DNA from: a virus
IMG/VR virus record: IMGVR_UViG_3300010396_000037
Direction: 5' to 3' (one strand)
DNA: 64,000 bases
Part shown: piece by piece, positions 20,746 through 38,857 of the stretch
Layout of the letters: each line of letters opens with the position of its first letter
Numbering within the stretch: the stretch's first letter is position 1
Made by a program: the position numbers and the translations under genes
Notes under the pieces: model-generated
What the model was told of the DNA's origin: nothing
Database searches by the model: none
The model's input: only the letters and a program-made list of their open reading frames with translations

Positions 20746-22101
20746 ATGCAATTGAATCAGAACGCTGAAAAGATAGTATTACCTGCTCCTTACAACATGG
20801 ATTATTTGTTGGGTGAATGGTTGGACAAAGAGCATTATGATCGTGTGATTGATAGTGATTGTGATGCTTATCAGAAACCATTATTTGGCGATGTGACTGA
20901 ACAGAATTGTTTGTTCCGTTTTAGAAAGAATGTCTTTTCAGAAAATGAACAATCTCAAGCCTATGAAGGACTGATTAACGCAGCTGGTCAGTCTCAAAAT
21001 AGAGGCATGGCGGCTGGCACACGTCATGAAAAATTGAATCAACGTGAGTGGGTCACAGATGCACAACAGGATCTTCTGGATTCTGTTTTTGCGCCTGCTA
21101 GATTAGATGGCAGAGACCCTGTTCAAGAAGCGCTGGACGCTTATCATCCTTCCACTGGTCAATCCCCTGGCAGCAGTGTGCGTGGAACCGTTTGGTTGAG
21201 GGAAAAGATCACTTCAACTTACAACAATTACAATGTGAATGATATCGTTGTTCAGTTTCTCAAGGAAAAAGTCAAGCCTGCTTCCTACCTGGAACGTCAA
21301 CAGCTGGTCAGAGAATTTATCGATCAATATCAATCAGATACAAATTATGCCAATCCTGTGAATTCAGGTGTTGCTGGCGCAATGGGTCGTTACCCAAGAA
21401 TCCCTTATGCACGATTGACTTCTTATAGTCGTGACTATCCAGAACTCTTTGCCAAGAGTTTCCCTTATTTGCATGACTTGAACCAATTTTTCAAGGAGCT
21501 GTTGCCAAATCGTTGGCAATTACAACGTGACGCAGCTGATAAGATTGATCCCAGATTTCTTGTGGCCGACACTGTCTTCAGTACAATCACGGTAAACAAA
21601 ACGTTTCGCACGGCTGCTCATCGTGATGCTGGAGACTTTGGTCCTGGCTTCTCTAATCTTGGAGTTGTTTCAGCTGGCAAATCCTACAAGGGTGGTTATC
21701 TTGTACTTCCTGAATTTAAAGTGGCTATCAATATTCGTCCGGGTGATTTGTTATTGATTGACAATCATGCGTGTATTCATGGTAACACTCCAATTGAACC
21801 TGAAGATTCAAATGATAGTCCTGAAGACATTATTCGTTGTAGTGTTGTTGCCTACTTGAGAGAAGATTTATTGGAAGCGGGTGTAAAGGAATATGAAGAT
21901 GCCCGTTATCAATTTATTGAAGAACGTCGCAATAACAAAAGTCATCCGCTTTGGCGTGAACGCTGGAATGGAGTTTCGCCATCATGGGACAGTTCTGAAG
22001 AGTGGTTCAACTGGCTGAAGAATAAATATGGAAGCCAAGGTGATGAGTGGATTCAAAAACATCACCATGTGCAAACTAATCTGGAAAGTTTCTTCGCATG
22101 A
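20746..22101 (+). CDS. 2OG-Fe(II) dioxygenase, TET/JBP family (5-methylpyrimidine oxidase)
   Basis: FSTITVNK.FRTAAHRDAGD (HxD), GGYLVLPE...PGDLLLID.H..IHGNT (distal H), RCSVVAY.RE (2OG-binding R). Confidence 0.85.
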   Translation: MQLNQNAEKIVLPAPYNMDYLLGEWLDKEHYDRVIDSDCDAYQKPLFGDVTEQNCLFRFRKNVFSENEQSQAYEGLINAAGQSQNRGMAAGTRHEKLNQREWVTDAQQDLLDSVFAPARLDGRDPVQEALDAYHPSTGQSPGSSVRGTVWLREKITSTYNNYNVNDIVVQFLKEKVKPASYLERQQLVREFIDQYQSDTNYANPVNSGVAGAMGRYPRIPYARLTSYSRDYPELFAKSFPYLHDLNQFFKELLPNRWQLQRDAADKIDPRFLVADTVFSTITVNKTFRTAAHRDAGDFGPGFSNLGVVSAGKSYKGGYLVLPEFKVAINIRPGDLLLIDNHACIHGNTPIEPEDSNDSPEDIIRCSVVAYLREDLLEAGVKEYEDARYQFIEERRNNKSHPLWRERWNGVSPSWDSSEEWFNWLKNKYGSQGDEWIQKHHHVQTNLESFFA

Positions 22102-22649
22102 ACAATGTTACAGGAACAGCTAAATTAACTGACCCGTTGGATAGAGATTTAATTCCTTCATCACACAAGTTGTTGCATGAAGTCATGCCTGTGTTTAATT
22201 TTATGAACCCAGACATGAGTCCTGTGGAGTTGTATAATATATTGGGTCATAACATGGTCCGTTACAATGGACTAGGACTATCCGCTAATCAATTAGGTAT
22301 CCGTGCTCGCTGTTTTGTTATGCGAGCCGAGGAAATAATTCCAGTGTTCAATCCTAGAATTATTTCTACTTCTACTGAAACAGTCATGATGAAGGAAGGT
22401 TGTTTGAGTTTCCCTAATCTTGCACTGTCGGTGGAACGTCCAAGACAAATCAAAGCTCGTTTTTTTGATCCTACTGGTCAAGCTAAAACTGTTGACTTGA
22501 TTGGATTATCTGCTCATGTATTCCTGCATGAAATGAATCATTTGGATGGTATAACTTTTGATCAACTTGCTAAACCATTCGCGTTGAAACTAGCCAAGGA
22601 GAAGGCTGCCAAACTTAACAAGAAATTAAACAGAGGACGTAAAGCATGA
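22098..22649 (+). CDS. def: Peptide deformylase
   Basis: GLGLSANQLG, EGCLS, HEMNHLDG. Confidence 0.95.
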   Translation: MNNVTGTAKLTDPLDRDLIPSSHKLLHEVMPVFNFMNPDMSPVELYNILGHNMVRYNGLGLSANQLGIRARCFVMRAEEIIPVFNPRIISTSTETVMMKEGCLSFPNLALSVERPRQIKARFFDPTGQAKTVDLIGLSAHVFLHEMNHLDGITFDQLAKPFALKLAKEKAAKLNKKLNRGRKA

Positions 22650-23356
22650 GTAAGATGCTCTTTTTGGATATAGAAACTGCGCCATCAGTTGCGTATGTTT
22701 GGTCATTATTTGGTAATGATGTCATTCCTATTGATAGAATTGTAAGTCCTGGCTACACTCTTTGCTTCAGTGCAAAATGGAAAAATAAAAGTAAGATGCA
22801 TTTCCATTCCGTACATACAGATGGCAAAAAGAAGATGCTTGAAGCTGCATGGAATTATCTTGACGAAGCTGATACAGTTTGCCACTACAATGGCGCTAGT
22901 TTTGATATTCCGACATTGCGTGGTGAGTTCATGACCAACCATATGATGCCTCCTTCTCCATTCGTACAGATTGATCTCTATAAGACAATCAAAACAGCGA
23001 AGTTGGCAAGCCGCAAACTTGATTATGTTTGCGACCAACTGGGTCTTGGAAATAAAGTAAGACATAAGGGAATGGGTCTGTGGAAAGGATGCATGGCAGG
23101 TAAAGCAGCAGACTGGAAAATCATGACACGCTACAACAAACATGATGTGGTACTGCTTGAAGACTTGTTCTATGAAATTGAACCTTGGGTGAATGGCATT
23201 CCTGCTAGCAAAGATGAATGCAAGCATGTCAACATTATCAAGAAAGGAACATATGCTACGAACAGTAGTGTATATCAGAGGCATTATTGCAAGGATTGCA
23301 ATCACTACATCAAAGGCCAATTATTGTATCGTGTTCCTATGAAATTGAGAGCGTAA
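22646..23356 (+). CDS. DnaQ/RNase H-like (DEDDy) exonuclease with C-terminal Zn ribbon
   Basis: LDIET, HYNG.SFD, KLDY, YNKHDV; C..H...HYCKDC. Confidence 0.8.
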   Translation: MSKMLFLDIETAPSVAYVWSLFGNDVIPIDRIVSPGYTLCFSAKWKNKSKMHFHSVHTDGKKKMLEAAWNYLDEADTVCHYNGASFDIPTLRGEFMTNHMMPPSPFVQIDLYKTIKTAKLASRKLDYVCDQLGLGNKVRHKGMGLWKGCMAGKAADWKIMTRYNKHDVVLLEDLFYEIEPWVNGIPASKDECKHVNIIKKGTYATNSSVYQRHYCKDCNHYIKGQLLYRVPMKLRA

Positions 23357-23357
23357 T

Positions 23358-23642
23358 ATGAGTGATGTTAAAGTAGTGAAATTGATTACAGGTGAAGAGC
23401 TTTTGGCTTCTGTGACAGATTATGTAGAGACAATGATGCTTGAAAAGCCATATGTCATGGTGATGGGTCCAGAAGGTGCTGGTATTATGCCTTGGATGCC
23501 TTACGCTGAGACTGATAATGTGGAAATTGATAAGAACAAAGTCATTGCTGTTTTAGAGCTTAAAGAGTCTGTTAAGCAGTCTTACAGTAAGATGGTTGGT
23601 AAGATCATTTTGAATGAGAGTAAAATTCATTTAGCGAGCTGA
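23358..23642 (+). CDS. Small conserved T4-like protein (Sm-like fold candidate)
   Basis: VKLITGEE..A....P......PW.PY pattern. Confidence 0.65.
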   Translation: MSDVKVVKLITGEELLASVTDYVETMMLEKPYVMVMGPEGAGIMPWMPYAETDNVEIDKNKVIAVLELKESVKQSYSKMVGKIILNESKIHLAS

Positions 23643-23647
23643 TTAAC

Positions 23648-23827
23648 ATGGATATTATTGATATTTTGGGATTGATATTATTTTTGTATGCGGTTACAAC
23701 TACAATAGCATTGTTAATTACTGATTTTATTGTGAAAGAAGATTTTGGTTGGTTTCAGGCATTTCTATGTTTCATTTGGCCTGTATCCTTGATTGCATAT
23801 TTGATAAACAGAATGTGGGAGAAATAA
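23648..23827 (+). CDS. Small membrane protein (59 aa)
   Basis: Manual translation MDIIDILGLILFLYAV...FIWPVSLIAYLINRMWEK. Confidence 0.55.
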   Translation: MDIIDILGLILFLYAVTTTIALLITDFIVKEDFGWFQAFLCFIWPVSLIAYLINRMWEK

Positions 23828-24118
23828 ATGAATAATCCTGTTAAGATTCGTGCGAAGTTCCGTGTAGCACAAGTTTTACCTTATAAGAATGAAAATGGTC
23901 AGACCACTCTAGAACATTGGGAAATGTATGCTGTTGGAGGTAATGGTGTACGTCATGGTTATCCTGAAGACGGTTCAGATGAAGATAATACTTTTTCTAA
24001 GTGGACACCTAATGCTCATCTGACTATGGATGTTCAGAATCCTAATTTGTTTGGAATGCTGAAAGTCAATGATAAGTATTATGTCGACTTCACTTTGGCT
24101 GAAGAAACAACTGTATGA
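23828..24118 (+). CDS. Hypothetical protein
   Basis: RAKF.V...E...F.KWTP......NP......YYVDFT; coupled to neighbours. Confidence 0.65.
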   Translation: MNNPVKIRAKFRVAQVLPYKNENGQTTLEHWEMYAVGGNGVRHGYPEDGSDEDNTFSKWTPNAHLTMDVQNPNLFGMLKVNDKYYVDFTLAEETTV

Positions 24119-24276
24119 TTACAGAAGAACAGGCTAGACTGTTGTGTGAAGCGTTTGGAGTTTTTGAGTTGCTCCAGGATGAAGAGGAAACTGGACTTCT
24201 AGAAGAACATAATCCTTCAATGCTGGATGCGTATATAGACTTGTACCAGATGGCTTATGGAGAAGGATGGTCATGA
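24115..24276 (+). CDS. Small acidic hypothetical protein
   Basis: Manual translation MITEEQARLLCEAFG...; ATGA overlaps on both sides. Confidence 0.5.
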   Translation: MITEEQARLLCEAFGVFELLQDEEETGLLEEHNPSMLDAYIDLYQMAYGEGWS

Positions 24277-24440
24277 AAACTTACGCTGTAATTGATGATT
24301 TTGGTGATGATTGGGAGGAAGGACGCATCGTCCATGAGGCAGATACTCTGGACAGAGTTTATGAATGGGCAGAAGAAAATAATTTTCATAGCGCGTCCAT
24401 AGTGTCCATCGAAGATGATATCAGAGAGATTGTAAGATGA
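24273..24440 (+). CDS. Small acidic hypothetical protein
   Basis: MKTYAVIDDFGDDWEEG...; SD-like GAAGGA upstream. Confidence 0.5.
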   Translation: MKTYAVIDDFGDDWEEGRIVHEADTLDRVYEWAEENNFHSASIVSIEDDIREIVR

Positions 24441-24491
24441 AGAGTGATAAGCTAATGGTACCAGTTGGCATTACAAAGGCTAAGAAATAAC

Positions 24492-25358
24492 ATGGAATTA
24501 AAGATCACCAGAGAAGAATTTTCAAAGAAGAAACTTATGATCTGCTGCCCTATGTATGGCGGCATGTGCACTGGCGTTTTCACACAATCAATGTTGAAAC
24601 TTCAAGGATTGTGCCAACAATATGGGATTGGATTTTCAATCAATTTCCTTTTCAATGAGTCTCTGATTCAGAGAGCTAGAACCTATTTGACTGATAGTTT
24701 TATGCGTTCTGATTGCACGCATCTTTTGTTTATTGACTCTGATATTCAATTTGAAGCCAATGATGTGCTCTTTCTTCTTGGTTTGCAGACTGATGAGTCA
24801 CCTTATGATATCATAGGTGGTGCATATCCAAAGAAGACCATCTCGTGGGAGAAGGTAAAGCAAGCGGTGGATGCAGGAGCTGCTGACAAGAATCCAGCTG
24901 ATCTTGAAAATTTCGTTGGAGACTTTGTCTTCAATCCAGTGATGCCAGATGAAGTAAAAGAAGGTCAAGCATACCAATTGCGTTTAGATGAGCCTGTAGA
25001 GATTATGGAGTTGGGCACAGGTTTTATGATGATCAGACGCTCTTCATTAAAGAAATGGGAAGACGCGCATTCTGACAGACTGTATTTGCCTGATCATGTA
25101 CGCACCAAAGATTTCGATGGGTCAAGAGAAATTTACGAATACTTCACGGTCAAGGTTGATCCTAAGAGCAAGAGACTCCTATCTGAAGACTATCAACTCT
25201 GTCATGAGTTCCGTGATCTTGGAATGAAAGTGTGGTTGTGCCCATGGATGCGATTGGGTCATCTTGGCAGTTATTTGTTTGGAGGATCATTACCAGCATT
25301 GGCTAGCGTAGGAGTTTCAGCCACTGCTGATCCTTCCAAGCTTGTTGATAAGAAATAA
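24492..25358 (+). CDS. GT-A fold glycosyltransferase
   Basis: PMYGG, NESLI.RAR, THLLFIDSDI (DxD), GGAYPKK, GTGFMMI.R, LSEDY..C, L.H.G. Confidence 0.85.
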   Translation: MELKITREEFSKKKLMICCPMYGGMCTGVFTQSMLKLQGLCQQYGIGFSINFLFNESLIQRARTYLTDSFMRSDCTHLLFIDSDIQFEANDVLFLLGLQTDESPYDIIGGAYPKKTISWEKVKQAVDAGAADKNPADLENFVGDFVFNPVMPDEVKEGQAYQLRLDEPVEIMELGTGFMMIRRSSLKKWEDAHSDRLYLPDHVRTKDFDGSREIYEYFTVKVDPKSKRLLSEDYQLCHEFRDLGMKVWLCPWMRLGHLGSYLFGGSLPALASVGVSATADPSKLVDKK

Positions 25359-25369
25359 GGAAGAACATT

Positions 25370-25792
25370 ATGTGTGTTGTATCATTCGTTGGCAAGCATT
25401 ATGAGGATGAATTCAGTAAGAAGCCGTACAGGCCATGGGAAGCTCCGACAGTTCCGGGTTGGCCACCAACATATTATCCAAAACCATCTGATGAAGAAGT
25501 GAAGAGGCAAATAGAGAAACTTCAAAATGGTGTTGTTTCTAACGAAGAAATCAAGAAACAGGTTGAAGAGCTTAGAAAGCAAGTAGAAGAGATGAAAAAG
25601 TTCTTGATTGAAGCTCTTGAATATGACAGACTTTACAAACAACCAGATTGTGAAAATGATCTCAAGATTGCATTCTTGAAGAAAGTTGCGGAGTCAGTTG
25701 GTCTAACCTTGGATGATATTTTTCCAAACAAACCAACTCCACCACCTTCCCGTTTGATAAAGGAACACCAGACTCCTAAAAAGAAGAAATAA
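25370..25792 (+). CDS. Hypothetical coiled-coil protein
   Basis: AGGA SD; MCVVS..., heptads, QPDCE. Confidence 0.6.
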   Translation: MCVVSFVGKHYEDEFSKKPYRPWEAPTVPGWPPTYYPKPSDEEVKRQIEKLQNGVVSNEEIKKQVEELRKQVEEMKKFLIEALEYDRLYKQPDCENDLKIAFLKKVAESVGLTLDDIFPNKPTPPPSRLIKEHQTPKKKK

Positions 25793-25795
25793 TAG

Positions 25796-26035
25796 ATGGA
25801 TTTTGAAGCTAATCTGACTTCCTTTTGTAGTGAAATACAATACTTGGTAAACAATGGCCACACTTATCTGGAGTCATTGACTTTGTATATTGATATGCAC
25901 AATTTGGATGTTGAAACTGTTTCACAGATGGTTAAAAAGAACAAAGCATTGATGGAGAATTTAGCAGCGGAATGCTCTGAAAACATGATGTTAAAAACCA
26001 AGAAAAAAGATTCATTGAAAAAGTTTTTGAAGTAA
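25796..26035 (+). CDS. gp33: Late transcription coactivator gp33
   Basis: F..EI..LV.....YLE....Y......E.......L...L..E......LK; C-terminal SLKKFL. Confidence 0.75.
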   Translation: MDFEANLTSFCSEIQYLVNNGHTYLESLTLYIDMHNLDVETVSQMVKKNKALMENLAAECSENMMLKTKKKDSLKKFLK

Positions 26036-26048
26036 AGCGATATACAAT
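26024..26048 (+). promoter_or_regulatory. TTTTTGAA-N11-TACAAT promoter-like motif upstream of the gp45-44-62-regA operon
   Basis: Motif recurrence. Confidence 0.6.
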
Positions 26049-26068
26049 AATTGAATTGGAGATAGTCT

Positions 26069-26269
26069 ATGTCTGAAAATAATAATACTAACTATGGTGG
26101 AATCGGTTTCACTGGATTGTTAACCATAGTGTTCATCGTTTTGAAGCTGACGCATGTTATTAATTGGTCATGGTGGTGGGTTCTAGCACCTACTTTAATC
26201 CCATTAGGATTGATTGTAATTATTTTGTTGATAGCGACGTTTGTCTTTTATATTAACAGTAGGAGTTGA
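26069..26269 (+). CDS. Small membrane protein
   Basis: GGIGF.GLLTIVFIVLKL..VI.WSWWWVLAP. Confidence 0.7.
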   Translation: MSENNNTNYGGIGFTGLLTIVFIVLKLTHVINWSWWWVLAPTLIPLGLIVIILLIATFVFYINSRS

Positions 26270-26271
26270 TT

Positions 26272-26952
26272 ATGAAGTTGTCTGAACGCACTGTTTCATT
26301 ATTGAAAAATTTCGCTGGTATCAATCCCAGCATCCTGATCAAACCAGGAAATGTTTTGCAAACTATCAATCCAATGAGTAGCGTGATTGCGACTGCCACG
26401 ATTGAAGAGTCTTTCCCTAAAGAATTTGCGATCTATGACTTGAATCAGTTCTTGTCTGCAATTTCTATGTTCAAGGATTGCAACATTGAATTTGGTGAAG
26501 GATATCTAGAGTTGAAGGGTGAGGGAAGTGCGACGATTCGCTATTGGTGCGCTGAACCATCTTTGATTAAGTCAAAGGTGTCTGAAGTTAAGTTGCCAAG
26601 CGAAGATGTTCAATTCAATTTATCTGAAACAGCATTGTCTAAGGTTCTGAAAGCTGCTTCAATTCTTGCTTTGCCGGAGCTTGCTTTTGCATCTAATGGT
26701 GATACACTATCTGTTAAGGCAATTGATAGTCGCTCTAGTTCAAGCAATTCAATGGATGTTGAATTGTGCAAGAATGAAAGTGGTAGCAAATTCAATATTA
26801 TCTTCCAGGTTGATAACTTGAAGATGCTTGTTCAAGACTATGCTGTGACAGTTTGCGCCAAGGGTATTACCAAGTTTCATAGCACAGGCAAGAATGAATA
26901 TGAATTGACATATTATGTAGCTTCATCTGTTCACTCAACATTCGCGAAGTAA
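26272..26952 (+). CDS. gp45: Sliding clamp gp45
   Basis: MKLS..T..LLKNF..IN.SI, F.IYDL..FL, NLKM....Y.V, Y.VA. Confidence 0.96.
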   Translation: MKLSERTVSLLKNFAGINPSILIKPGNVLQTINPMSSVIATATIEESFPKEFAIYDLNQFLSAISMFKDCNIEFGEGYLELKGEGSATIRYWCAEPSLIKSKVSEVKLPSEDVQFNLSETALSKVLKAASILALPELAFASNGDTLSVKAIDSRSSSSNSMDVELCKNESGSKFNIIFQVDNLKMLVQDYAVTVCAKGITKFHSTGKNEYELTYYVASSVHSTFAK

Positions 26953-26963
26953 GAGGCAATAAA

Positions 26964-27911
26964 GTGATTTCTACTAATACTAATGAATTTTTGTGGGTCG
27001 AAAAATTTCGTCCCAAGACAGTTTCAGAAACTATTCTTCCAACAACATTGAAGAAAACATTTCAGACGTTTGTTGATCAGAAGAATATTCCTAACTTGTT
27101 GTTGAATGGTGGCGCAGGGATTGGCAAGACTACCGTAGCTAAAGCTATGTGCAGTGAGTTGGACTGTGATGTTCTATCAATCAACGCAAGTCTAAATGGT
27201 AATGTTGATACACTAAGGAATGAAATAGCACAATTCGCTTCTACTATGTCTTTCAAGACTGGTAGAAAGATTGTATTCCTGGATGAAGCTGATGCGTTGA
27301 CTGATGCAACTCAAAAGGGTTTGCGTGGCTTCATGGAAGAGTTTGCATCAAACTGTGGATTCATTCTGACTTGTAATTTCAAAAACAGGATCATTGATCC
27401 TCTTCATTCAAGACTTTCTATCATTGAGTTCTCCATTCCAAAAGAAGAACAACCAAAGCTAGCTATGGAATTCTTCAAGAGAATGGAAGAAATCTTGGAG
27501 ACTGAAGGAGTTGGTTATGATAAGGAAGCTGTGGTTGCTCTAATCAAACAGCATTTTCCAGATTGGAGGAGAGTGATCGGTGAGCTTCAACGCTACAGTG
27601 CTACAGGGTACATAAATACAGGTGTACTGGCAACTGTAAAAGATGAAGATTTTGACGAATTGGTTGGGTTGTTGAAGAACAAGAAGTGGAATGAGATGAG
27701 AAAGTGGGTGGGTGAACACACTGATGTTGAACCAAACGCATTACTCCGCAGGTTCTATGATCAATCCAAGTCGGTTGTTAAACCTGCGTCAATTCCAACG
27801 TTGGTGTTATTGCTAGCTGAAACTCAATACAAGTTGCAGTTTTCAGCTGATTCAGAAATTTGTATCGCTGCATTTCTAACTCAAGTTATGAGTGAAGTTT
27901 CATTTACTTAA
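26964..27911 (+). CDS. gp44: Clamp loader large subunit gp44
   Basis: LWVEKFRP, G.AGIGKTT, DEAD, LRGFMEEF, PLHSR, FPDWRR. Confidence 0.96.
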   Translation: MISTNTNEFLWVEKFRPKTVSETILPTTLKKTFQTFVDQKNIPNLLLNGGAGIGKTTVAKAMCSELDCDVLSINASLNGNVDTLRNEIAQFASTMSFKTGRKIVFLDEADALTDATQKGLRGFMEEFASNCGFILTCNFKNRIIDPLHSRLSIIEFSIPKEEQPKLAMEFFKRMEEILETEGVGYDKEAVVALIKQHFPDWRRVIGELQRYSATGYINTGVLATVKDEDFDELVGLLKNKKWNEMRKWVGEHTDVEPNALLRRFYDQSKSVVKPASIPTLVLLLAETQYKLQFSADSEICIAAFLTQVMSEVSFT

Positions 27912-27922
27912 ACAGGTGATTT

Positions 27923-28123
27923 ATGGTATTCAAGAAGAAAGTTAAACCAACATTTGAACAGTGGTCTCAACTAAAGGAAACAATTACACAATTTCCGTTG
28001 ACTCCAGCTGTTATTGTTTCGGAGTTTCAAAAGAGTCGTGGTGTAGACTTGAATCGTGTGCGTATTGATGCTATGCGCGAAGAATATGAGAAAATTTATG
28101 GCGAAGGCGAAGAAAACTTGTGA
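27923..28123 (+). CDS. Hypothetical protein between gp44 and gp62
   Basis: AGGTG SD; 66 aa. Confidence 0.6.
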   Translation: MVFKKKVKPTFEQWSQLKETITQFPLTPAVIVSEFQKSRGVDLNRVRIDAMREEYEKIYGEGEENL

Positions 28124-28968: not shown

Positions 28969-28977
28969 GAGCAGAGA

Positions 28978-29082
28978 ATGAAATTAGACATGTGCGTCTA
29001 CATTCTTTACAGTTTAGGGTCATGCTGTTTTCTGGCAGGGTCGCTATTAACCATTTGGTTGAAACTGAGAGGAATACAATGA
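28978..29082 (+). CDS. Small hydrophobic peptide (34 aa)
   Basis: MKLDMCVYILYSLGSCCFLAGSLLTIWLKLRGIQ; ATGA overlap with next gene. Confidence 0.45.
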   Translation: MKLDMCVYILYSLGSCCFLAGSLLTIWLKLRGIQ

Positions 29083-29339: not shown

Positions 29340-29350
29340 GGATAAATACA

Positions 29351-30317: not shown

Positions 30318-30325
30318 GGTGATTC

Positions 30326-30910
30326 ATGGCACAGAAGAAAGAAGTGGTAAGTGGATCATTGGATGATCTGAGGATAGAACGCAGCGGTGTTGGTGATGTT
30401 AATGGTAAAGGTCGTGGTTCAGCTGCTCGTTTCAACGCAGGTAAGATGAGGTATGATTTGCTTGATATTGGAGTGTTAATAGAGTCACTTAAAATTGAGT
30501 TGGAGGATTCCCTGTACTTGCCTGTTTTGGAAAGTCTTTCCAAATGGCAACATGGTGGCACGTCTGAAGATTTATTGCAATCTGCACTGACTCTTTCTAT
30601 ATTGACTTCCAGCAACTGGAGTGAGAATCCAGCTTGTATAGGTTATGTTCCCTGGGATCAATGTGCTGAAGTTTTTGAATATGGTGCCAAGAAATATTCA
30701 GAATGGAATTGGTTGCGTGGCCAGTCTTGGTCTATTCCATTTGCTTGTTGTTTAAGGCATTTGGCTAAGATTTCTAGAGACGAATGGATTGATCCAGAAT
30801 CTGGCAAAACACATCTTGGCCATTTTCTTTGTAATGTAATGATGCTATGCTACTTTGAGAAGGAATACACGGAAGGCGATGATCGTCCTCCATTCCTGAA
30901 TAAAGAATGA
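30326..30910 (+). CDS. dATP/dGTP diphosphohydrolase-like protein (DUF5664 family)
   Basis: RFNAGK.RYDLL...AEVFEYGAKKY..WNW..G......LRHL......DPESG..HL.H..CN..ML. Confidence 0.8.
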   Translation: MAQKKEVVSGSLDDLRIERSGVGDVNGKGRGSAARFNAGKMRYDLLDIGVLIESLKIELEDSLYLPVLESLSKWQHGGTSEDLLQSALTLSILTSSNWSENPACIGYVPWDQCAEVFEYGAKKYSEWNWLRGQSWSIPFACCLRHLAKISRDEWIDPESGKTHLGHFLCNVMMLCYFEKEYTEGDDRPPFLNKE

Positions 30911-30917
30911 GGATCCA

Positions 30918-33428
30918 ATGCGTTTCTATACTAATGTTGTCAATCGTGGAAAGAACATCTATGTTCGAGGTTGGGCTGAAGGCAAACGTTGGGCTGAAGT
31001 AATACCATACAAACCACGTCTTTATATCGAGAACAATAAACAACTCACGGCAGGTAAGTGGGTTGATATGATGTCCGGTAAAGCACTGGCACAAGTTGAT
31101 TTTGATAATATCTATGAAGCTAAAGACTTCATCAAACAATATGATGGGTTGAATGATTTTCATATCTATGGATCAACTGATTGGACTGGTCAATACATAT
31201 TTGATGTTTTCCCAGGAGAGGTGCATTCTGACCTGAACAGGATCAATGTGCTGTTTATGGATATTGAAGTAGATTCTAAGAATGGATATGCTTCTGTAAA
31301 CAGTGCTGAGAATGAAGTCATCTCAATTACGATCTGCACGCGTGGTAAGTATTATGTATTGGGTTTGGTTGACTTCAAAGTGCCAGAAGGCAAGAATGTT
31401 CAATATCACAAGTGTAGCAGTGAACGTGAACTCCTTGTTATCTTTCTACAATGCTGGGAGAAGGCCGATCCTGACGTTGTAACAGGATGGAACACCAATG
31501 GCTACGACTTACCTTATCTGATCAATCGCATTTCTCGAGTCTTTGGAGAGGAAGAATGCAAGAAGCTTTCTCCATGGAGAAAAATGCCAGTCTTGAAGGA
31601 CGCAATTGGTAAAGCTGGTCGCAAAACGATCAAACCTTACATTGATGGCATCGCTTGTCTTGATTATTATGATCTCTACACCAATGGTAAATTCGTTCAA
31701 AGTCAACGTGAAGAATACACACTTGACTATATTTCTAGATATGAACTTGGTTCTGAAAAGACAGATTACAGCCAGTATGGATCACTTGCGAAATTTTATG
31801 AACAGAATCCACAGCTCTTCATAGAATACAACATCCATGACGTTGAATTGGTTGTTGCTCTGGATGCCAAGTTGAAGTTTCTTGAGCTGGTCTATTCGAT
31901 GGCTTATGATGCCAAAGTCAACTATCAAGATACTTTAGGATCAGTGTTCATCTGGGAAAACATCATCCGTAATCACCAGATGTCTAAGGGAATGGTTCCG
32001 CCATTAAAGAAAGACGTGGGCGAGAAGAACCAATCTATTGTAGGTGGTTATGTCAAAAACCCAAATCCTGGTATGTATCATTGGGTTGTAACCTTTGACG
32101 CGTCATCCCTGTACCCTTCTTTGATTCGACAATTGAATATCAGTCCAGAGACACTTCAGGGTGTAATGTATTCTGTCGACAGGTCTGACTTAGATGGTAG
32201 TGGTTGGGAAGAAGCGAGGGCGTTGGCTCAAGAAAACAATTGGACGATTGCTTCTAATGGCGCAGCTTTTGATGTTGAAAGAAGTGGATGTCTACCAGAA
32301 TTGATGTACATCTATTATCAGAAAAAGAATGATGCGTCAAAACTTCAAATTGAAGCAGAAAAAGAGTTACAGCTGAAACCTGGTGATAAGGAATTAGAAC
32401 TTCGCATTCAGAATCTGAAGTCAAAGATATTCGCAACCAAGGTGCTACTCAATTCTTGTTTCGGTGCAACATCTAATCCTTACTTCCAGTTCTCTGACGA
32501 TAGAATCGCGGAAGCAATTACAACTTCAGGTCAGACGTTGATTCAGACCGCTGCAAAAAGAGTCAATGCACAATTTTGCAAGATCATGAAAAGCAATCGT
32601 GATTACATTATTGCTTCTGATACAGACTCAATTATTGTGGATTGTTCTTCAATTGTTGAAGCTGCCAAATGGAATGGTTCTTTGAATCCAACTGCGTCTG
32701 TTGAAGAAACAACCAAGTTCCTCAATAGATTGTGCGAAGCTAAACTGAACCCATTGCTTGATGAAATCATGGATGAGATAGTTAGCAAGACTCATGCTCG
32801 TGAAAAAGCAGTGTTCATGGTGCGTGAAGCAATTTGCGACACAGTAGTTTGGGTGGCTGCTAAGAATTACATGATGCGCATTTGGAACAACAAAGGCGTC
32901 ACATACAAGAATCCTAAATACAAGATCATGGGTCTTGAAGCTGTTCGTTCTACCACTCCAACTGCTTGTAGAAAAGCTTTGAAGCATTCAATTGAATTGA
33001 TACTAGATGAAAATCAACAGGGATTGTTAGATTACATAGAGGAATTCAAGAAAGTATTTTGGAACTCTGATTATTCTGAAGTCAGTAAGAACATTAGCGT
33101 GAGATTTGGTTCACCTGTTGTTACTCAACAGATCAGAGCAGCAACAGTGTATAACAATGCCATCAAAGAAAGAAATTTGGAAAATCTCTATTCTTTGATA
33201 TCACATGGTAGTAAAATACGCCTCTTGCATCTAAAGAAACCAAATCCATTGGGGTCTGATATTATTGGATTCCCAGAAGGCAAGCTTCCAAAGGAATTTG
33301 GAATTGACAAGTATATTGACAAAGAACAAATGTTTGAAAAGACATTCATGGTTCCGCTTGAAAAGATGGTTAAAGCAGGTGGAATGAGTATTAAGCAAGA
33401 AGATTCATTGTCTGCATTTTTTGTTTGA
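30918..33428 (+). CDS. gp43: Family B DNA polymerase gp43
   Basis: DIEV (ExoI), GWN..GYD, YNIHDV, D.SSLYPS, K...NS.FG, SDTDS. Confidence 0.97.
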   Translation: MRFYTNVVNRGKNIYVRGWAEGKRWAEVIPYKPRLYIENNKQLTAGKWVDMMSGKALAQVDFDNIYEAKDFIKQYDGLNDFHIYGSTDWTGQYIFDVFPGEVHSDLNRINVLFMDIEVDSKNGYASVNSAENEVISITICTRGKYYVLGLVDFKVPEGKNVQYHKCSSERELLVIFLQCWEKADPDVVTGWNTNGYDLPYLINRISRVFGEEECKKLSPWRKMPVLKDAIGKAGRKTIKPYIDGIACLDYYDLYTNGKFVQSQREEYTLDYISRYELGSEKTDYSQYGSLAKFYEQNPQLFIEYNIHDVELVVALDAKLKFLELVYSMAYDAKVNYQDTLGSVFIWENIIRNHQMSKGMVPPLKKDVGEKNQSIVGGYVKNPNPGMYHWVVTFDASSLYPSLIRQLNISPETLQGVMYSVDRSDLDGSGWEEARALAQENNWTIASNGAAFDVERSGCLPELMYIYYQKKNDASKLQIEAEKELQLKPGDKELELRIQNLKSKIFATKVLLNSCFGATSNPYFQFSDDRIAEAITTSGQTLIQTAAKRVNAQFCKIMKSNRDYIIASDTDSIIVDCSSIVEAAKWNGSLNPTASVEETTKFLNRLCEAKLNPLLDEIMDEIVSKTHAREKAVFMVREAICDTVVWVAAKNYMMRIWNNKGVTYKNPKYKIMGLEAVRSTTPTACRKALKHSIELILDENQQGLLDYIEEFKKVFWNSDYSEVSKNISVRFGSPVVTQQIRAATVYNNAIKERNLENLYSLISHGSKIRLLHLKKPNPLGSDIIGFPEGKLPKEFGIDKYIDKEQMFEKTFMVPLEKMVKAGGMSIKQEDSLSAFFV

Positions 33429-33437
33429 GGATTAGAT

Positions 33438-34484
33438 ATGGCAAATGTTGAATTACTGAAAAGATTAAAAGCAGCATCAACTATTGATGAAACATCAATG
33501 CTGGAAGATTCAGTGGTGTTTCAGAAAAAGGATTTGGTTCAGACTCCTGTTCCAATGTTGAATGTTGCATTATCAGGCATGCTGGATGGCGGATTTGCTT
33601 CTGGCTTGACGGTATTTGCGGGTGAGAGCAAAAGGTTCAAGACTATGTATGTCTTGATTTGTGCTGCTGCTTATCTGAAGAAATATCCTGATTCTGTTCT
33701 TTTGTTTTATGATTCTGAATTTGGTACTCCACAATCATATTTCAGTTCACTTGGTATTCCTCTGGATAGAGTGATTCATACACCTATTACAACTGTTGAA
33801 CAATTGCGTTCAGATATAGCCAATCAGTTGAATGCTATCAAGAAAGGAGACAGAATTTTCATTGCAGTTGATTCTGTAGGAAATCTTGCGTCTGCAAAAG
33901 AAGTCAATGATGCCTTAGACGAGAAGTCCGTAGCAGATATGACACGCGCCAAACAATTGAAGTCTCTCTTTCGTATTATCACTCCACAGTTGACATTGAA
34001 AGATGTTCCATGTTTTGTTGTTAATCATACTTACAAAACCATGGAGCTTTATTCCAAAGATGTTGTATCTGGCGGAACAGGTGTTTATTATAGCTCTGAT
34101 AACATCTTTATTATTGGTCGACAACAAGAAAAAGAAAAAGATAAATTGTCTGGTTTTAATTTCATTATTAATGTAGAGAAGTCACGTTTTGTAAAGGAAA
34201 AGAGTAAAATACCGATTAGTGTTTCTTTTGAGCATGGTATGCAAAAGAATTCTGGATTGCTTGAATTGGCTCTTGAGTTGAATTATGTAACTTCGCCAAA
34301 ATTGGGACAATATGCTTTCGTGAATCGCAAGACTGGTGAAGTAGAAGATAAGACATTCAAAAAGACCGAAACCACTAAACCAGAATTTTCCAAACGTTTG
34401 TTGGATGATGTTGATTTTCAAGAAGCTGTTAAGGATAAGTTTCAGATTGCTAGGACAGCTCTGTTTAAGAATGATGAGGAATAA
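33438..34484 (+). CDS. uvsX: RecA-like recombinase UvsX
   Basis: NVALSG, AG.SK.FKT, FYDSEFG, DSVGNLAS.KE, ADMTRAK, VNHTY, VSGGTG. Confidence 0.96.
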   Translation: MANVELLKRLKAASTIDETSMLEDSVVFQKKDLVQTPVPMLNVALSGMLDGGFASGLTVFAGESKRFKTMYVLICAAAYLKKYPDSVLLFYDSEFGTPQSYFSSLGIPLDRVIHTPITTVEQLRSDIANQLNAIKKGDRIFIAVDSVGNLASAKEVNDALDEKSVADMTRAKQLKSLFRIITPQLTLKDVPCFVVNHTYKTMELYSKDVVSGGTGVYYSSDNIFIIGRQQEKEKDKLSGFNFIINVEKSRFVKEKSKIPISVSFEHGMQKNSGLLELALELNYVTSPKLGQYAFVNRKTGEVEDKTFKKTETTKPEFSKRLLDDVDFQEAVKDKFQIARTALFKNDEE

Positions 34485-34486
34485 GA

Positions 34487-35902
34487 ATGCCACAACCAAT
34501 CGAAGTTGAAATTTTAAACGGTTTGGTGTTTGATTCGGAGTTTGCTAAGCTTGCTTTGCCGCACTTTGAAGATGAATATTTTTCTGATGATGGTACAAGA
34601 ACAGTTTTGAGCCTTGCTCGTGATTATATTGGTAAGTACGGAAGTCAACCAACGATTGATGCTTTAGCAATTGATCTGCAATCTGTAAAAGAGTTGACAC
34701 AGGACCAGTTTGAAGGTGCTAAGAATGTTATTCAAGAATTGAAACCGAGTGAAACTGACTACAAATGGCTGGTAGATAAAGCTGAAGGATTCTGCCAAGA
34801 TCGTGCTTTGTATCTTGGTATCATGCAAGCCATTCACATTGTTGATGGTAAGGAAACCAAGCATGGTATCTCTAAAGGAGCAATTCCTGACTTACTGCAA
34901 AAGGCATTGGCTGTCAATTTTGATCGTTCCATAGGTCATGATTACTTTTCTCAAGCTGATGCTCGTTTTGCATTCTATCATAATGATGAAGAACACATAC
35001 CATTTGATCTGGAGATGCTCAACCGCATCACCAAAGGTGGTTTGTACCGCAAGACTTTAAATGTTTTCACCGCTGCACCAGGAGTTGGTAAAACTCTGAC
35101 AATGTGCCATATGGCTGCATCATATGTTGCATCTGGTTTGAAAGTTCTATACATCACAATGGAAATGTCTGAAGAAAGGATTGCTCAGAGAATTGACGCG
35201 AACTTACTTGATGTATCCTTGAATGAGATAGAAAATATTTCTAGAGCGGATTTTGATTCCAGAGTGCAAAGAGCACGTTCCAGAATGACGGGTGATATAG
35301 TCATCAAAGAATTCCCGACTGGTGGTGGAAACGTCAATCATTTCAGACATTTACTTTCTGAATTGGACCAGAAGAAGAGATTCAAACCGGATGTTATCTT
35401 CGTTGACTATATGAATATTTGTTCATCAGCCCGTTACCGTAATGGCGATGGAGCAAATAGTTATTCTGTCGTGAAAGCTATTGCTGAAGAGTTGAGAGGC
35501 ATGGCGGTTGAATTCAATGTTCCCGTTGTTACAGCAACACAGTTTAACCGTGAAGGAGCGGGTTCGTCTGATCCTGAAATGACGAATACATCAGACAGCT
35601 TCGGAACACCCATGACGGCTGACTTGCAATTGGCAATCTACTCTACTCCAGACCTGGATGAACAGGGTAAGTTGGTTATCAAGCAATTGAAGAATCGCTA
35701 CAATGATAAGACAGAATACAAGAAGTTTCTGTTAAGAGTGGATAAGAGCAAAATGCGTTTGATGGATGATGATGTGCTGGAAGGATACTCAACTTCTTTG
35801 TCTGATAAGGAAAAGAAGAACATTGAAGAAATGTCTAATGCTCGCAAACCAACACATGATGAAAAATCATTTGGTGGGTTTGATTTTGGAGAGGATGAAT
35901 AA
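34487..35902 (+). CDS. gp41: Replicative DNA helicase gp41
   Basis: GHDYF, A.PGVGKT, TMEMSEERI..RIDAN, IKEFPT, VDY, ATQ.NR, KQLKNRY.D. Confidence 0.96.
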   Translation: MPQPIEVEILNGLVFDSEFAKLALPHFEDEYFSDDGTRTVLSLARDYIGKYGSQPTIDALAIDLQSVKELTQDQFEGAKNVIQELKPSETDYKWLVDKAEGFCQDRALYLGIMQAIHIVDGKETKHGISKGAIPDLLQKALAVNFDRSIGHDYFSQADARFAFYHNDEEHIPFDLEMLNRITKGGLYRKTLNVFTAAPGVGKTLTMCHMAASYVASGLKVLYITMEMSEERIAQRIDANLLDVSLNEIENISRADFDSRVQRARSRMTGDIVIKEFPTGGGNVNHFRHLLSELDQKKRFKPDVIFVDYMNICSSARYRNGDGANSYSVVKAIAEELRGMAVEFNVPVVTATQFNREGAGSSDPEMTNTSDSFGTPMTADLQLAIYSTPDLDEQGKLVIKQLKNRYNDKTEYKKFLLRVDKSKMRLMDDDVLEGYSTSLSDKEKKNIEEMSNARKPTHDEKSFGGFDFGEDE

Positions 35903-35903
35903 T

Positions 35904-37085
35904 ATGCGCGTATGTGTACTCTATTGGCCTATCAGTGGTGTGGGTGGTATCTCAACTTTCATGAAGCATATGAAAGCAGTCGCAGATGATCGTGGAGATA
36001 CATTCCATGTTCTCTGTTCGCCAAATCAGAAAGGTAAAGAAGTTGGGTTATTGCCAGAAGCAACTGAAGTGGCTGGTGGTTCATCTAACATCTTGATTGA
36101 TGGATATGTGCCGCATCATCCATCTAACTTCGAGAAGTCCGCTGATTTCATCGCCAAGAATTATGACGTGGTTCTAACAGCCCATTTATGTCCAAGACCT
36201 AACAAGTCTTATGGTGAAGAACCCGTTTTCTTAAATCTTCTGAATGAATTGCATGCAAAAAATGTTAGAATGATTGGATTCATTCATGATGGGTATTGGG
36301 ACACTTACAAGGAGTTCGGCATTCCAACTCTTGAGTTAATGCAGAAAACAATTATTGCGCAGCCAACTTATGCCAAACCAATTCTAACAGAAAAACACTA
36401 TCCAATTGAACCAACTTATCTGGCCATTCATCCACGAATTCTAGAAGCCAATAAACTTGAAGGCGATCAAAGAAATCGTAAGCGCGTTGTCTGGTTGCCA
36501 CAATGGAAGCGCATCAAAGGTACACACCTGATGCTACAAGGACTTCCTGAGGCAGAACAGATAGGATATGATGTACATCTTTATGGATGCGGCATTGATT
36601 ATTACAACGCATGTTTGGAAGATAGCTGGAAGAAGATGATTGGTAAAGATCTATTCCGTCCAGATTGTTCTGGCCAAGGAACAGCAACTTATTTCGGTAC
36701 AAGACCATACAACGAAGTTTCTGTTGCTTTACAACAAGCAACTTTCTCACTAGATTTCCAAGGTCACAGTGCAAAATATAAGACTGCATATGAAACTGGT
36801 TCTTACAATTATACTCATCTTGAAAGTCTATATTGGGGATGCGTACCTGTTGTGCATAAAAATTTCTTGAAGAATGACATACCAGATGATTTGGTTCTTG
36901 CTCTTGACCACCCTGAAATGTGGGCAAACGCCATCAAGAAGTATTGTAGCTTTAATTACCCAACCGAAAAAGCCAGGGAGTATGTATTGGAACATCATTC
37001 TGCTACAAGGCATTATGACCAGACATTTTCAATGGAATGTAAAGAGATTAAGGAAGAAGGTGGTCTTTCGGCATTCTTTGTATGA
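35904..37085 (+). CDS. GT-B fold glycosyltransferase (T4 alpha-glucosyltransferase-like DNA glycosyltransferase candidate)
   Basis: MRVCVL....GVGGI N-terminal loop, FIHD, W..IKG, NYTHLE..YWGCVPV; in the replication operon after gp41. Confidence 0.75.
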   Translation: MRVCVLYWPISGVGGISTFMKHMKAVADDRGDTFHVLCSPNQKGKEVGLLPEATEVAGGSSNILIDGYVPHHPSNFEKSADFIAKNYDVVLTAHLCPRPNKSYGEEPVFLNLLNELHAKNVRMIGFIHDGYWDTYKEFGIPTLELMQKTIIAQPTYAKPILTEKHYPIEPTYLAIHPRILEANKLEGDQRNRKRVVWLPQWKRIKGTHLMLQGLPEAEQIGYDVHLYGCGIDYYNACLEDSWKKMIGKDLFRPDCSGQGTATYFGTRPYNEVSVALQQATFSLDFQGHSAKYKTAYETGSYNYTHLESLYWGCVPVVHKNFLKNDIPDDLVLALDHPEMWANAIKKYCSFNYPTEKAREYVLEHHSATRHYDQTFSMECKEIKEEGGLSAFFV

Positions 37086-37462
37086 ATCGTTGGACTTACA
37101 ATGGTTTTGACTATGATGAATCTAAAGGAGCATTCGGATTCATCTATTTGATTACAAATCTTGAAACAGGCAAAATGTACGTCGGTAAGAAAAGTTTCAA
37201 GAGATGGGATGGAGAAGAGAGCGATTGGAGAACATATCATGGCTCATGTAAGAGTCTGAATGAAGACCTGCGTGAAAAGAACTCTTTGAAGAGAGAGATT
37301 CTCTACATTTGTGAAACTGAAGAAGAAATGGATAAACTGGAAATTGAAGAGCAATTAAAGCGTGATGTTGTGAATGATCCTAGATATTACAATCGCAGAG
37401 TTGGGGATAGATTTCTAGGCATGAAACGTGTGAATGGTAGGCTACAGAAGAAAACAGCATGA
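37082..37462 (+). CDS. Stand-alone GIY-YIG nuclease (EndoII/DenA-like)
   Basis: FGFIY.ITN..TGK.YVGKK, W..Y.GS, REIL, E..E, YYN; 126 aa with no DNA-binding tail. Confidence 0.7.
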   Translation: MNRWTYNGFDYDESKGAFGFIYLITNLETGKMYVGKKSFKRWDGEESDWRTYHGSCKSLNEDLREKNSLKREILYICETEEEMDKLEIEEQLKRDVVNDPRYYNRRVGDRFLGMKRVNGRLQKKTA

Positions 37463-37524
37463 AACGTGTGGTAGATAACACTAAACCAGTGAAGATTGTT
37501 ATAGAGCCTCATGCAGACAATTAG
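37459..37524 (+). pseudogene. Orphaned 5' end of the PIG-L deacetylase gene
   Basis: MKRVVDNTKPVKIVIEPHADN*; ATGA-coupled to upstream gene; ends at the PHxD motif. Confidence 0.7.
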
Positions 37525-37530
37525 AGAAAG

Positions 37531-37538
37531 TATAAATA
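37531..37538 (+). promoter_or_regulatory. Late promoter TATAAATA of the homing endonuclease
   Basis: Perfect T4 late consensus 26 nt before the ATG. Confidence 0.75.
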
Positions 37539-37563
37539 TCTTCAATTGAATAGAGGATATTTT

Positions 37564-38322
37564 ATGAAGGAGTGGATATATAAAGGCGAAGAATTAGCAC
37601 AAGTTCCTGGCAATGCATTTGGATTTATCTATTGCATAACTAATGTTAATTCTGGGCAGAAATATATAGGCCGAAAACAATTTGTCACCCAAAAAGGAGT
37701 AGAAACAAATTGGAAAACTTATTTTGGGTCTAGTATGCATTTGTCTAAAGATGTAGAAAAATTAGGCAAAAAATGTTTTCTTAGGGAAATTATTAGCGTT
37801 CACTCATCTAATTCAGAATTGTGTGAAGCGGAAGTGACGGAACAAGAGAATAGAAATGTTCTGTATGAAATTTTACCCAATGGCGAAAGAGCATATTACA
37901 ACAGATGTATAAAAGGCAAAGAATTTTATATCAATATGTTGGAGAAATGGCAAGACCCAGAGTACAGGAAGCATCAAGAAGAAATGCATAAAGAAACATG
38001 GAAAAATCCAGACTATAGGAAGAGGATGTCTGATGCTCATAAAGGACAAGTCCAATGGAATTTAGGATTAAAAGGAACGCAACCTGTTACAGAAGAATTA
38101 AGAGCAAAGAGAAGAAAGTTATCCAGACAACTGTGGAATGATCCAGTTTATAGAGAAAATTGTTTGAATGCCTGTAAATCAGAGGATCGAAGAAAGAAGT
38201 TGTCTGATGCCCATAAGGGTAAAAAATGGATAACTAATGGCAGCAGAAGCGTTCTGTTTAGAGGAGAAAATCTCCCAGAAGGTTACAGATATGGCAGGAA
38301 ATATTCCCCAAATAGTTTGTGA
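37564..38322 (+). mobile_element. GIY-YIG homing endonuclease with NUMOD3-like repeats
   Basis: FGFIYCITN...GQKYIGRK, YYN; W.(D/N)P.YR x3, (M/L)SDAHKG x2, WITNG, GYRYGR; GAGG SD. Confidence 0.85.
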
Positions 38323-38857
38323 AACCCATGCCGATGATGCCTTTTTGAGTATGGGGCAGCATTTAGAAGATTGGCATAAACAAAGGATTCCTACAGCTAT
38401 TGTTACAGTTTTCAGTGGTACTAGAAAGAGAGCTGTAGATGCACAGAAATACGCAGATGCTGTAGGAGCAAAATGGGAAGGTTGGGGGTTTGTAGAAGGG
38501 GAACCATTACCCAATGATCTTTCTATGTATTTGCAAAATTCAAAAATATCTTTATTTCCTTTCTCGGAAAGTGTTGAATGGTATATAAATCTTGCTCTAA
38601 CACACCCGGAACATAAGAGGGTAAGAGAGTTGCTGGAACCTGCGGCAGCTGGAATGTATGTTGATCAGCCTTATGCTATCACACAAAAGAATGCTCCTAT
38701 TGTAACAGAACTCATGAAAGGAAGAACAGTTCTGAGTTACAAACATCCTGGGAAGCGTAAGTATCGCCACATTCCTCTGTTCAAAGACCAATCAAAGTTC
38801 TTTTATTTCAACAATGAAGAGAAACTTCTTCAGACCTTTGAAATGATCGTCCAATAA
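38291..38857 (+). CDS. PIG-L/LmbE-family N-acetylhexosamine deacetylase
   Basis: E.HADD...S.G, VTVFSG, R.......A..VG, HPEH, Y.DQPY. Confidence 0.75.
   Translation: MAGNIPQIVCETHADDAFLSMGQHLEDWHKQRIPTAIVTVFSGTRKRAVDAQKYADAVGAKWEGWGFVEGEPLPNDLSMYLQNSKISLFPFSESVEWYINLALTHPEHKRVRELLEPAAAGMYVDQPYAITQKNAPIVTELMKGRTVLSYKHPGKRKYRHIPLFKDQSKFFYFNNEEKLLQTFEMIVQ

Follow-up and report, generated by a model that had tools for sequence, protein, structure and literature searches.

The 64,000-nucleotide stretch of virus DNA analysed here (the window; IMG/VR record IMGVR_UViG_3300010396_000037) is that of a T4-like myovirus by gene content and order, and it encodes a TET/JBP dioxygenase (TET), a glycosyltransferase of GT-B fold (GT-B) and a PIG-L-family deacetylase (PIG-L) that, on balance, appear to form a pathway for the hypermodification of DNA after replication. 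In the reading that we prefer, TET would hydroxylate the C5-methyl group of thymine in new phage DNA to give 5-hydroxymethyluracil (5hmU), with 5-methylcytosine (5mC) as an alternative substrate. GT-B, to judge from its fold and its partnership with PIG-L, would then add an N-acetylhexosamine (HexNAc), probably N-acetylglucosamine (GlcNAc) from the uridine diphosphate GlcNAc of the host, to the hydroxymethyl group, and PIG-L, by the chemistry of its family, would take off the acetyl group to leave a cationic hexosaminyl-5hmU. The gp45 sliding clamp would hold TET and GT-B on newly replicated DNA by way of tails that copy the docking tail of the polymerase, and the modified DNA would resist host nucleases. 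We advance more tentatively the possibility that a clade of T4-like phages makes an 'amino base J', O-hexosaminyl-5-hydroxymethyluracil, after replication, using a clamp-borne TET and a clamp-borne HexNAc transferase resembling T4 DNA alpha-glucosyltransferase (AGT), followed by PIG-L. The three enzymes are encoded as follows.

20746..22101, plus strand: TET/JBP (5mYOX) Fe(II)/2-oxoglutarate dioxygenase, 451 amino acids (aa), recognized by PF12851
35904..37085, plus strand: GT-B glycosyltransferase, 393 aa, shaped like T4 AGT in its predicted structure, ending ...EGGLSAFFV
38291..38857, plus strand: PIG-L/LmbE-family zinc de-N-acetylase, 188 aa, with a substitute N-terminus, recognized by PF02585 in its homologues, a family profile and its motifs

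The initial annotation, made from the letters of the window, had placed a TET/JBP dioxygenase at 20746, and this assignment stands. The protein scored 71.7 bits with PF12851 (E value 5.3e-20), well over the cut-off of 34.9, and the residues of the Fe(II) triad and the 2-oxoglutarate Arg (HxD...H...R), which are H292, D294, H345 and R364, were invariant among 20 homologues. Homologues with 42-51% identity are present in Stenotrophomonas phage DLP6 and Caulobacter phage Cr30, the isolates nearest to the window phage by protein identity; the DLP6 protein is annotated as an 'SNF2 DNA repair protein'. Judged by its sequence, TET is probably a DNA-acting hydroxylase of thymine (or 5mC).

The GT-B enzyme called at 35904 was borne out by its predicted structure. 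Its start lies directly after the gp41 stop codon and agrees with the starts of its homologues. Pfam gave no match, and the predicted model was a complete GT-B fold (pLDDT 83, pTM 0.83) with a disordered tail. A Foldseek comparison of this model with solved structures placed T4 AGT, in its DNA complexes, at the top (E 1e-13). T4 AGT also headed the 998 chains compared with VIA-align (Z 26.8, root-mean-square deviation 3.7 Å, 345 of the 393 residues aligned), the runner-up family being GT4/BshA (Z 23.4). The best named viral models were annotated as DNA alpha-glucosyltransferases (cyanophage S-TIM5, a siphovirus) and as glycosyltransferases of phage SP-15, a phage whose thymine is hypermodified. 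Among ten GT-B homologues, two carried a precomputed match to the GT4 profile PF13439, one of these being marked weak, and the window protein itself had none; the family profile of GT-B gave a weak match to a GT47 exostosin-like domain (E 6.6e-4).

PIG-L by itself scored 18.3 bits against PF02585, under the cut-off of 28.2. Most of its 82 homologues carry this domain, and the family profile matched solved LmbE-type deacetylases, namely Dbv21 (1.1e-9), teicoplanin Orf2*, BshB, diacetylchitobiose deacetylase and LmbE-related proteins. In the zinc and catalytic motifs (H-x-D-D and H-P-x-H), H13, D15, D16 and H108 were invariant and H105 was present in at least 90% of the sequences; the window protein reads THADD and HPEH. 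The PIG-L deacetylase predicted at 38291 is thus sound as a family assignment. Since the solved relatives are all deacetylases of GlcNAc conjugates, PIG-L would be a de-N-acetylase of the same kind. We infer an N-acetylhexosamine donor and a free amino-sugar product because GT-B and LmbE enzymes together are the classic unit that adds GlcNAc and then deacetylates it, and because the solved PIG-L relatives act on GlcNAc conjugates; provided that the pathway acts on DNA, a deacetylated HexNAc is a reasonably probable product.

In the window the PIG-L gene has been rearranged by homing endonucleases, and the following features lie between GT-B and the start of PIG-L or overlap it.

37082..37462, plus strand: homing endonuclease gene 1, of the GIY-YIG type and SegE-like, a selfish element set between GT-B and PIG-L (PF19835, 2.3e-23), present in the relative L002
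37459..37524, plus strand: remnant of the former PIG-L 5' end, coding for 21 residues and breaking off within H-A-D-D, recognized by comparing its translation with the intact L002 PIG-L N-terminus
37546..38322, plus strand: GIY-YIG/NUMOD3 homing endonuclease gene 2, inserted in the PIG-L 5' end (PF19835, 8.4e-28), absent in L002

The only genes between GT-B and PIG-L are these two GIY-YIG genes, and in L002 there is one. Endonuclease gene 2 was inserted exactly at the sequence coding for H-A-D-D of PIG-L. The working PIG-L open reading frame (ORF) restarts at 38291, in another frame inside the 3' end of the endonuclease gene, and the substitute first beta-strand region so encoded restores E11, H13, D15 and D16. 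We consider the window PIG-L probably active, less certainly than its uninterrupted orthologues because the gene was split and its N-terminus replaced.

We compared the C-terminal residues of TET and GT-B with those of gp43, the DNA polymerase. The features concerned are listed here.

26266..26952, plus strand: gp45 sliding clamp, the proposed docking platform (PF09116 gp45-slide_C, 2.3e-9)
30918..33428, plus strand: gp43 DNA polymerase (PF00136, PF03104), whose C-terminus ...EDSLSAFFV served as the reference clamp-binding tail
22078..22098, plus strand: C-terminal tail NLESFFA of TET, a putative gp45 clamp-binding peptide, seen in the sequence and similar to tails of homologues

gp43 ends in SLSAFFV, GT-B in GLSAFFV and TET in NLESFFA, so that the last six residues of gp43 and GT-B (LSAFFV) are the same. 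An L-x-x-F-F-x end was found on these three proteins only among the 86 window ORFs of at least 100 aa, where 0.05 would be expected by chance. The codons for LSAFFV differ between gp43 and GT-B at four of six positions, and the identity therefore appears to be maintained at the protein level. In the predicted model of GT-B the last eleven residues are disordered. The window matches JGI metagenome contig 3300010373 Ga0134128_10000055 (152,197 nt; window position = record position - 40,067). The rest of this genome was read via precomputed Pfam gene tables, which bring the covered part to about 86%; about 21 kb (record about 1.3-22.2 kb) lie outside their coverage. No further called gene with an L-x-x-F-F-x end was found in the readable parts.

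The tails on modification enzymes track the polymerase tail in relatives. L002 has LAAFFVEG on gp43 and LSEFFV on GT-B; DLP6 has TLDSFFA on gp43, TLGDFFV on TET and DLSSFFN on a TET-associated glycosyltransferase (TAGT, PF20691); and Cr30 has DLSSLFD on gp43 and the similar DLSKLF on a TAGT-like protein. When representatives were searched exhaustively, tails of this type (e.g., SLESLFG, SLEDFF and TLEDFFA) were found on 22 of the 31 closest TET homologues, and short TET forms from other phage types mostly have no such tail. The tail of T4 gp43 is S-L-D-F-L-F-G. T4 gp43, gp55 and gp33 bind the gp45 clamp by highly similar, interchangeable C-termini of hydrophobic and acidic character (PMC2988020). 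When the gp45 trimer was modelled together with GT-B residues 390-439, the predicted complex lent weak support to docking, scoring 0.43 against 0.00 for the best control. Among 78 solved complexes, 51 reached the mark applied to this score, as did 2 of 108 mismatched pairs; passes with a score of 0.60 or lower came from only 5 of those 78 and from all 4 passing mismatches, and a pass in this range is more often wrong than right unless the prior is strong. The gp45/GT-B tail runs agreed in at least 46% of contacts with a partner pLDDT of at least 35, and a like clamp-peptide complex has been solved, so the pass may reflect memorisation of that structure by the predictor. From the tail sequences, TET and GT-B are probably held on new DNA by gp45 through their C-terminal peptides. 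The fold of GT-B, its tail, the known gp45-binding C-termini and the co-variation of the tail with that of the polymerase together suggest that GT-B probably acts on DNA.

Some further C-termini were noted. The gp55 late sigma factor of the window (17153-17722) ends in ...KKDEV, a basic/acidic end without the hydrophobic epitope of T4 gp55, and gp55 of DLP6 and of Cr30 is similar in this respect. The ORF at 9654-10316, which ends in ...RDFFAF, was considered as a clamp ligand and rejected, as it encodes a baseplate hub protein. Three distant GT-B homologues (P0010, P0011 and P0013) have no FF tail and end in the acidic-aromatic peptides ...TLDDF, ...DTDEW and ...DSDEWFS. These resemble tails of the T7 type, which dock onto family A polymerases, and a parallel form of replisome tethering may exist.

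Homologues of GT-B and PIG-L were also found together in phages unrelated to the window phage. In a Pam3-like siphophage with a family A polymerase (L006), GT-B and PIG-L are accompanied by a 156-aa ORF, a 5-hydroxymethyldeoxyuridine (5-hmdU) DNA kinase that matched PF18723 at 5.8e-54, a thymidylate-synthase homologue (PF00303) and an HD phosphohydrolase. A 99.8-kb NCBI contig has the same order, but with a methyltransferase in the place of PIG-L. In a phage of 168.5 kb (L010), GT-B (42% identity), a TAGT-like protein, PIG-L, an NTP-transferase and a TAGT adjoin DnaB and RecA. Because of these three contexts, we consider that the GT-B/PIG-L pair recurs with enzymes that make or decorate 5hmU-DNA. 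PF18723, PF18724 (the amino acid:DNA transferase, AADT) and PF00303 were not found in the window or in the gene tables. The L010 region at 7968-13218 also encodes hydrophobic aromatic tails (DDFFG on GT-B, NLLF on PIG-L and SSFFD on TAGT), and from its end the L010 deacetylase may be tethered as well.

The surroundings of TET in its closest relatives are of a different kind. Directly 5' of TET in DLP6 (L005, 17045-19953) are the PF20691 TAGT that ends in DLSSFFN (AAY80_028; 9.9e-10) and a 563-aa sugar nucleotidyltransferase, both annotated as hypothetical. In Cr30 (L008, 19989-26462), TET is followed by the PF18724 amino acid:DNA transferase, the TAGT-like protein with its gp43-like tail, and an annotated inositol-1-phosphate synthase, a set of genes that hints at a different, unexplored thymine hypermodification. 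The DLP6 TAGT and NTP-transferase and the Cr30 TAGT-like protein and AADT gave no match to the window in tblastn.

The initial annotation had left the base open, with thymine (as in base J) as the fallback if no methylase existed elsewhere in the genome, and this is now the better-supported branch. As it had observed, no C5-methyltransferase is visible in the window: no methyltransferase family was found on any window gene examined. A search of the rest of the genome, which it had suggested, yielded no PF00145 C5-methyltransferase in the gene tables. PF00145 was also absent from the complete genomes of DLP6 and Cr30 in a search that detected it in 9 of 14 control genomes. The gene tables list ThyX, NrdA/B, a dUTPase/DCD-family protein and gp32, and from the presence of ThyX ordinary dTTP is therefore expected to be made. 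The AADT that follows TET in Cr30 (1.3e-52) is a thymidine-hypermodification enzyme. Phage 5mYOX enzymes oxidise T after replication, and a C5-methyltransferase accompanies only 6% of their pathways (PMC13229309). If the pathway acts on DNA, these gene contents make thymine, rather than cytosine, its likely substrate.

One could envisage the same three-enzyme route on cytosine, in which a C5-methyltransferase from the uncovered 21 kb or from the host would make 5mC, and TET would convert this to 5-hydroxymethylcytosine (5hmC) for glycosylation and deacetylation. Phage TET enzymes of the characterised clades A and B use 5mC as substrate (PMC8256090), phage glycosyltransferases place HexNAc on 5hmC (bioRxiv 10.1101/2023.12.21.572611), T4 AGT, the best fold match of GT-B, acts on 5hmC, and about 14% of the genome lies outside the gene tables. 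We nevertheless regard the cytosine route as improbable, given the absence of PF00145 from DLP6, Cr30 and the covered part of the phage genome, its rarity in 5mYOX pathways, the pairing of the TET homologue with AADT in Cr30, and the company of a 5-hmdU kinase and a thymidylate-synthase homologue that GT-B/PIG-L homologues keep elsewhere.

GT-B and PIG-L might instead act off DNA, on a small molecule (in the manner of BshA/BshB or MshA/MshB), an envelope glycan or a protein, with TET working alone or with another glycosyltransferase. In textbook bacillithiol and mycothiol synthesis a GT4 enzyme and an LmbE enzyme take the first two steps, such a pair being also a signature of these routes, and BshA and MshA were strong fold matches. 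Set against this, T4 AGT ranked above all GT4 enzymes over the full length of GT-B; GT-B and its T4-like orthologues carry a polymerase-type C-terminal tail, the window hexapeptide being that of gp43; the GT-B/PIG-L genes come after gp43-uvsX-gp41; their homologues are set among dedicated DNA-modification genes in the three other phage contexts; and no BshC- or MshC-type ligase was seen. We conclude that an action off DNA is unlikely.

Several observations weigh against the hypermodification pathway that we favour, and some of them also count for an action off DNA, namely that PIG-L has no clamp tail and that the genome has a third glycosyltransferase, a further GT4 gene (PF00534), outside the window. 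GT-B folds are common, and BshA and MshA stand only about 3 Z units below AGT. No sequence similarity between the GT-B family and T4 AGT was detected, either in tblastn against 50,697 phage records or with the family profile against the T4 genome, and because there is no sequence-level relation we speak of likeness of fold to AGT and not of family membership. TET and GT-B/PIG-L are 14 kb apart, and DLP6 and Cr30, the closest TET relatives, use other glycosyltransferases and gave no GT-B or PIG-L in tblastn. The siphophage clusters also carry a 5hmU kinase, and the acceptor there may not be plain 5hmU. The window PIG-L was split by a homing endonuclease, and its substitute N-terminus has T in place of the nearly invariant P12. 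Finally, the gene tables cover about 86% of the genome, and a C5-methyltransferase may be encoded in the other 21 kb or so.

The amino-sugar DNA pathway of the initial annotation included a GT-A glycosyltransferase that possibly extended the sugar. Its core of TET, GT-B and PIG-L is supported by the AGT-like fold, the clamp tails and the homologues in 5hmU clusters; the extension by GT-A is not. The gene in question is listed here.

24492..25358, plus strand: GT-A-fold protein (phrog_1574), recognized by predicted structure and a DxD motif

The ORF (24465-25358; true start 24492) had no match in Pfam, TAGT PF20691 included. Its AlphaFold model (pLDDT 84) supported the GT-A fold that had been assigned, matching STIV A197 (Foldseek E 1.7e-7), the LH3 glycosyltransferase domain, mimivirus R699 and ppGalNAc-Ts, and D82 and D84 of its DxD motif (FIDSD) were invariant. 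That all four enzymes cooperate, the GT-A protein adding a second sugar to the amino sugar to make a disaccharide, is in keeping with this intact fold and motif, with the distance of 2.4 kb from TET, a spacing kept in DLP6, and with known phage DNA glycans of two or three sugars. Yet the family has at least 6,704 homologues and is near-universal in non-T-even T4-like phages, including Sinorhizobium phages of the phiM12 type as well as many cyanophages and pelagiphages, for which no TET match was obtained; the protein has no clamp tail at its C-terminus and no PF20691 match; and its nearest solved folds are protein-glycosylating enzymes. We therefore consider such cooperation very doubtful, and from the distribution of its family the GT-A protein is most likely unrelated to the TET/GT-B/PIG-L pathway.

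The gene order of the window is gp47, gp46, TET, peptide deformylase, DexA-like exonuclease, GT-A-like, gp45, gp44, gp62, regA, gp43, uvsX and gp41, and all of these except the exonuclease are common to DLP6 and the window. The observation that gp43 is directly followed by uvsX was confirmed: gp43 ends at 33428, uvsX runs from 33438 to 34484 and gp41 from 34487 to 35902. A promoter and terminator scan of 33-41 kb did no better than shuffles, so the operon structure rests on strand and spacing only. Megablast of both gene regions, and tblastn of PIG-L, gave no match among the 50,697 phage records, and TET, GT-A, GT-B and PIG-L as single sequences found nothing useful among PDB sequences. One further gene might be part of the modification module.

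38886..39440, plus strand: 184-aa ORF directly after PIG-L, syntenic in L002, with no lead in Pfam, PHROG or Atlas

Other genes were noted in passing. The third glycosyltransferase (321 aa, PF00534/PF13692) lies about 2.5 kb past record position 143.5 kb, with glutaredoxin, a dUTPase/DCD-family gene and gp32 as neighbours. Just 5' of gp43, a 194-aa ORF (30326-30910) carries the N-terminal domain of dATP/dGTP diphosphohydrolase (PF18909, 2.7e-24); it is kept in L002, with homologous stretches in DLP6 and Cr30, and its product may shape the purine dNTP pool. A 312-aa ORF (57756-58694) that adjoins the portal gene belongs to the ADP-ribosyltransferase exotoxin family (PF03496) and probably encodes an Alt-like, packaged host-modifying enzyme. 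In L014 (11316-17873), RNA ligase 1, polynucleotide kinase-phosphatase and RNA ligase 2 surround ThyX and resemble a tRNA-repair set.

To our knowledge, the chemistry of a cationic amino sugar on hydroxymethylated thymine has not yet been measured in any DNA. If the pathway is as we propose, it would be the first case of an enzyme deacetylating a sugar bound to DNA and the first of a base hypermodification tethered to the replisome clamp, and its product would be a new chemical class in natural DNA, a free amino sugar in the major groove that is positive at neutral pH. Such a product would bear on resistance to nucleases and CRISPR, on the charge of DNA in packaging, on artefacts in sequencing and on how tool enzymes are designed, and the polymerase-like C-terminal tail would be a sequence marker that separates DNA-acting phage glycosyltransferases from the many that act on envelopes or proteins. 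Why and how phages modify DNA after rather than before replication has been called a mystery (PMC13229309), to which carriage along new DNA by the sliding clamp would offer an answer. Carriage of this kind parallels the role suggested for ParB, which may stabilise the DNA association of ParB-dependent 5mYOXs (PMC13229309).

The proposed pathway shares parts with several known systems. T4 AGT (PDB 1xv5, 1y8z, 1y6f), the best full-length structural match, is like GT-B a retaining-type GT-B enzyme, the two having about 14% identity, and it glycosylates a hydroxymethylpyrimidine flipped out of duplex DNA. Unlike the window phage, T4 uses gp42 to make 5hmC ahead of replication, and the sugar that it transfers is glucose. 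The tails resemble the epitopes of T4/RB69 gp43, gp55 and gp33 (PMC2988020) in being short hydrophobic/acidic peptides at the extreme C-terminus after a disordered linker, but the motif here is S/T-L-x-x-F-F-x and is found on DNA-modifying enzymes.

Phage TET/5mYOX enzymes, thymine-oxidising subclasses among them, and DNA glycosyltransferases for the addition of hexose, HexNAc or heptose have been published (Burke 2021, PMC8256090; O'Toole 2026, PMC13229309; bioRxiv 10.1101/2023.12.21.572611). In those pathways, as here, a PF12851 enzyme works on finished DNA and is followed by glycosyltransferases, and the thymine-oxidising clades, like the window, have no adjacent C5-methyltransferase. The window differs in that its genes lie scattered through a T4-like myovirus replication module and in having gp45-type tails instead of a ParB activator. 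A PIG-L de-N-acetylase step is not mentioned in these three sources, and a search of a literature library found no account of a deacetylase in DNA hypermodification or of gp45-type clamp tails on such enzymes.

The logic of BshA/BshB and MshA/MshB is also the same, as a retaining GT-B enzyme adds GlcNAc and a zinc LmbE enzyme deacetylates it, and both BshA and BshB came up in the fold and profile comparisons. The acceptors in these two systems are small molecules (malate and inositol phosphate), whereas in the window the gene context, the C-terminal tails and the best fold match point to DNA. Thymidine hypermodification clusters with a 5hmU DNA kinase (5-HMUDK, PF18723) and an amino acid:DNA transferase (PF18724) were reportedly described by Lee in 2018. 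The siphophage GT-B and PIG-L homologues adjoin PF18723 and a thymidylate-synthase homologue, and the Cr30 TET adjoins PF18724; unlike in those clusters, 5hmU in the window phage would come from TET after replication. In the base J system of kinetoplastids (JBP1/2 and JGT), a TET/JBP enzyme similarly hydroxylates thymine in DNA and O-glycosylation follows. That system is a eukaryotic epigenetic one in which JGT is a GT-A glucose transferase, with neither a deacetylase nor clamp tethering, whereas the pathway proposed here would combine an AGT-like GT-B enzyme, PIG-L and gp45.

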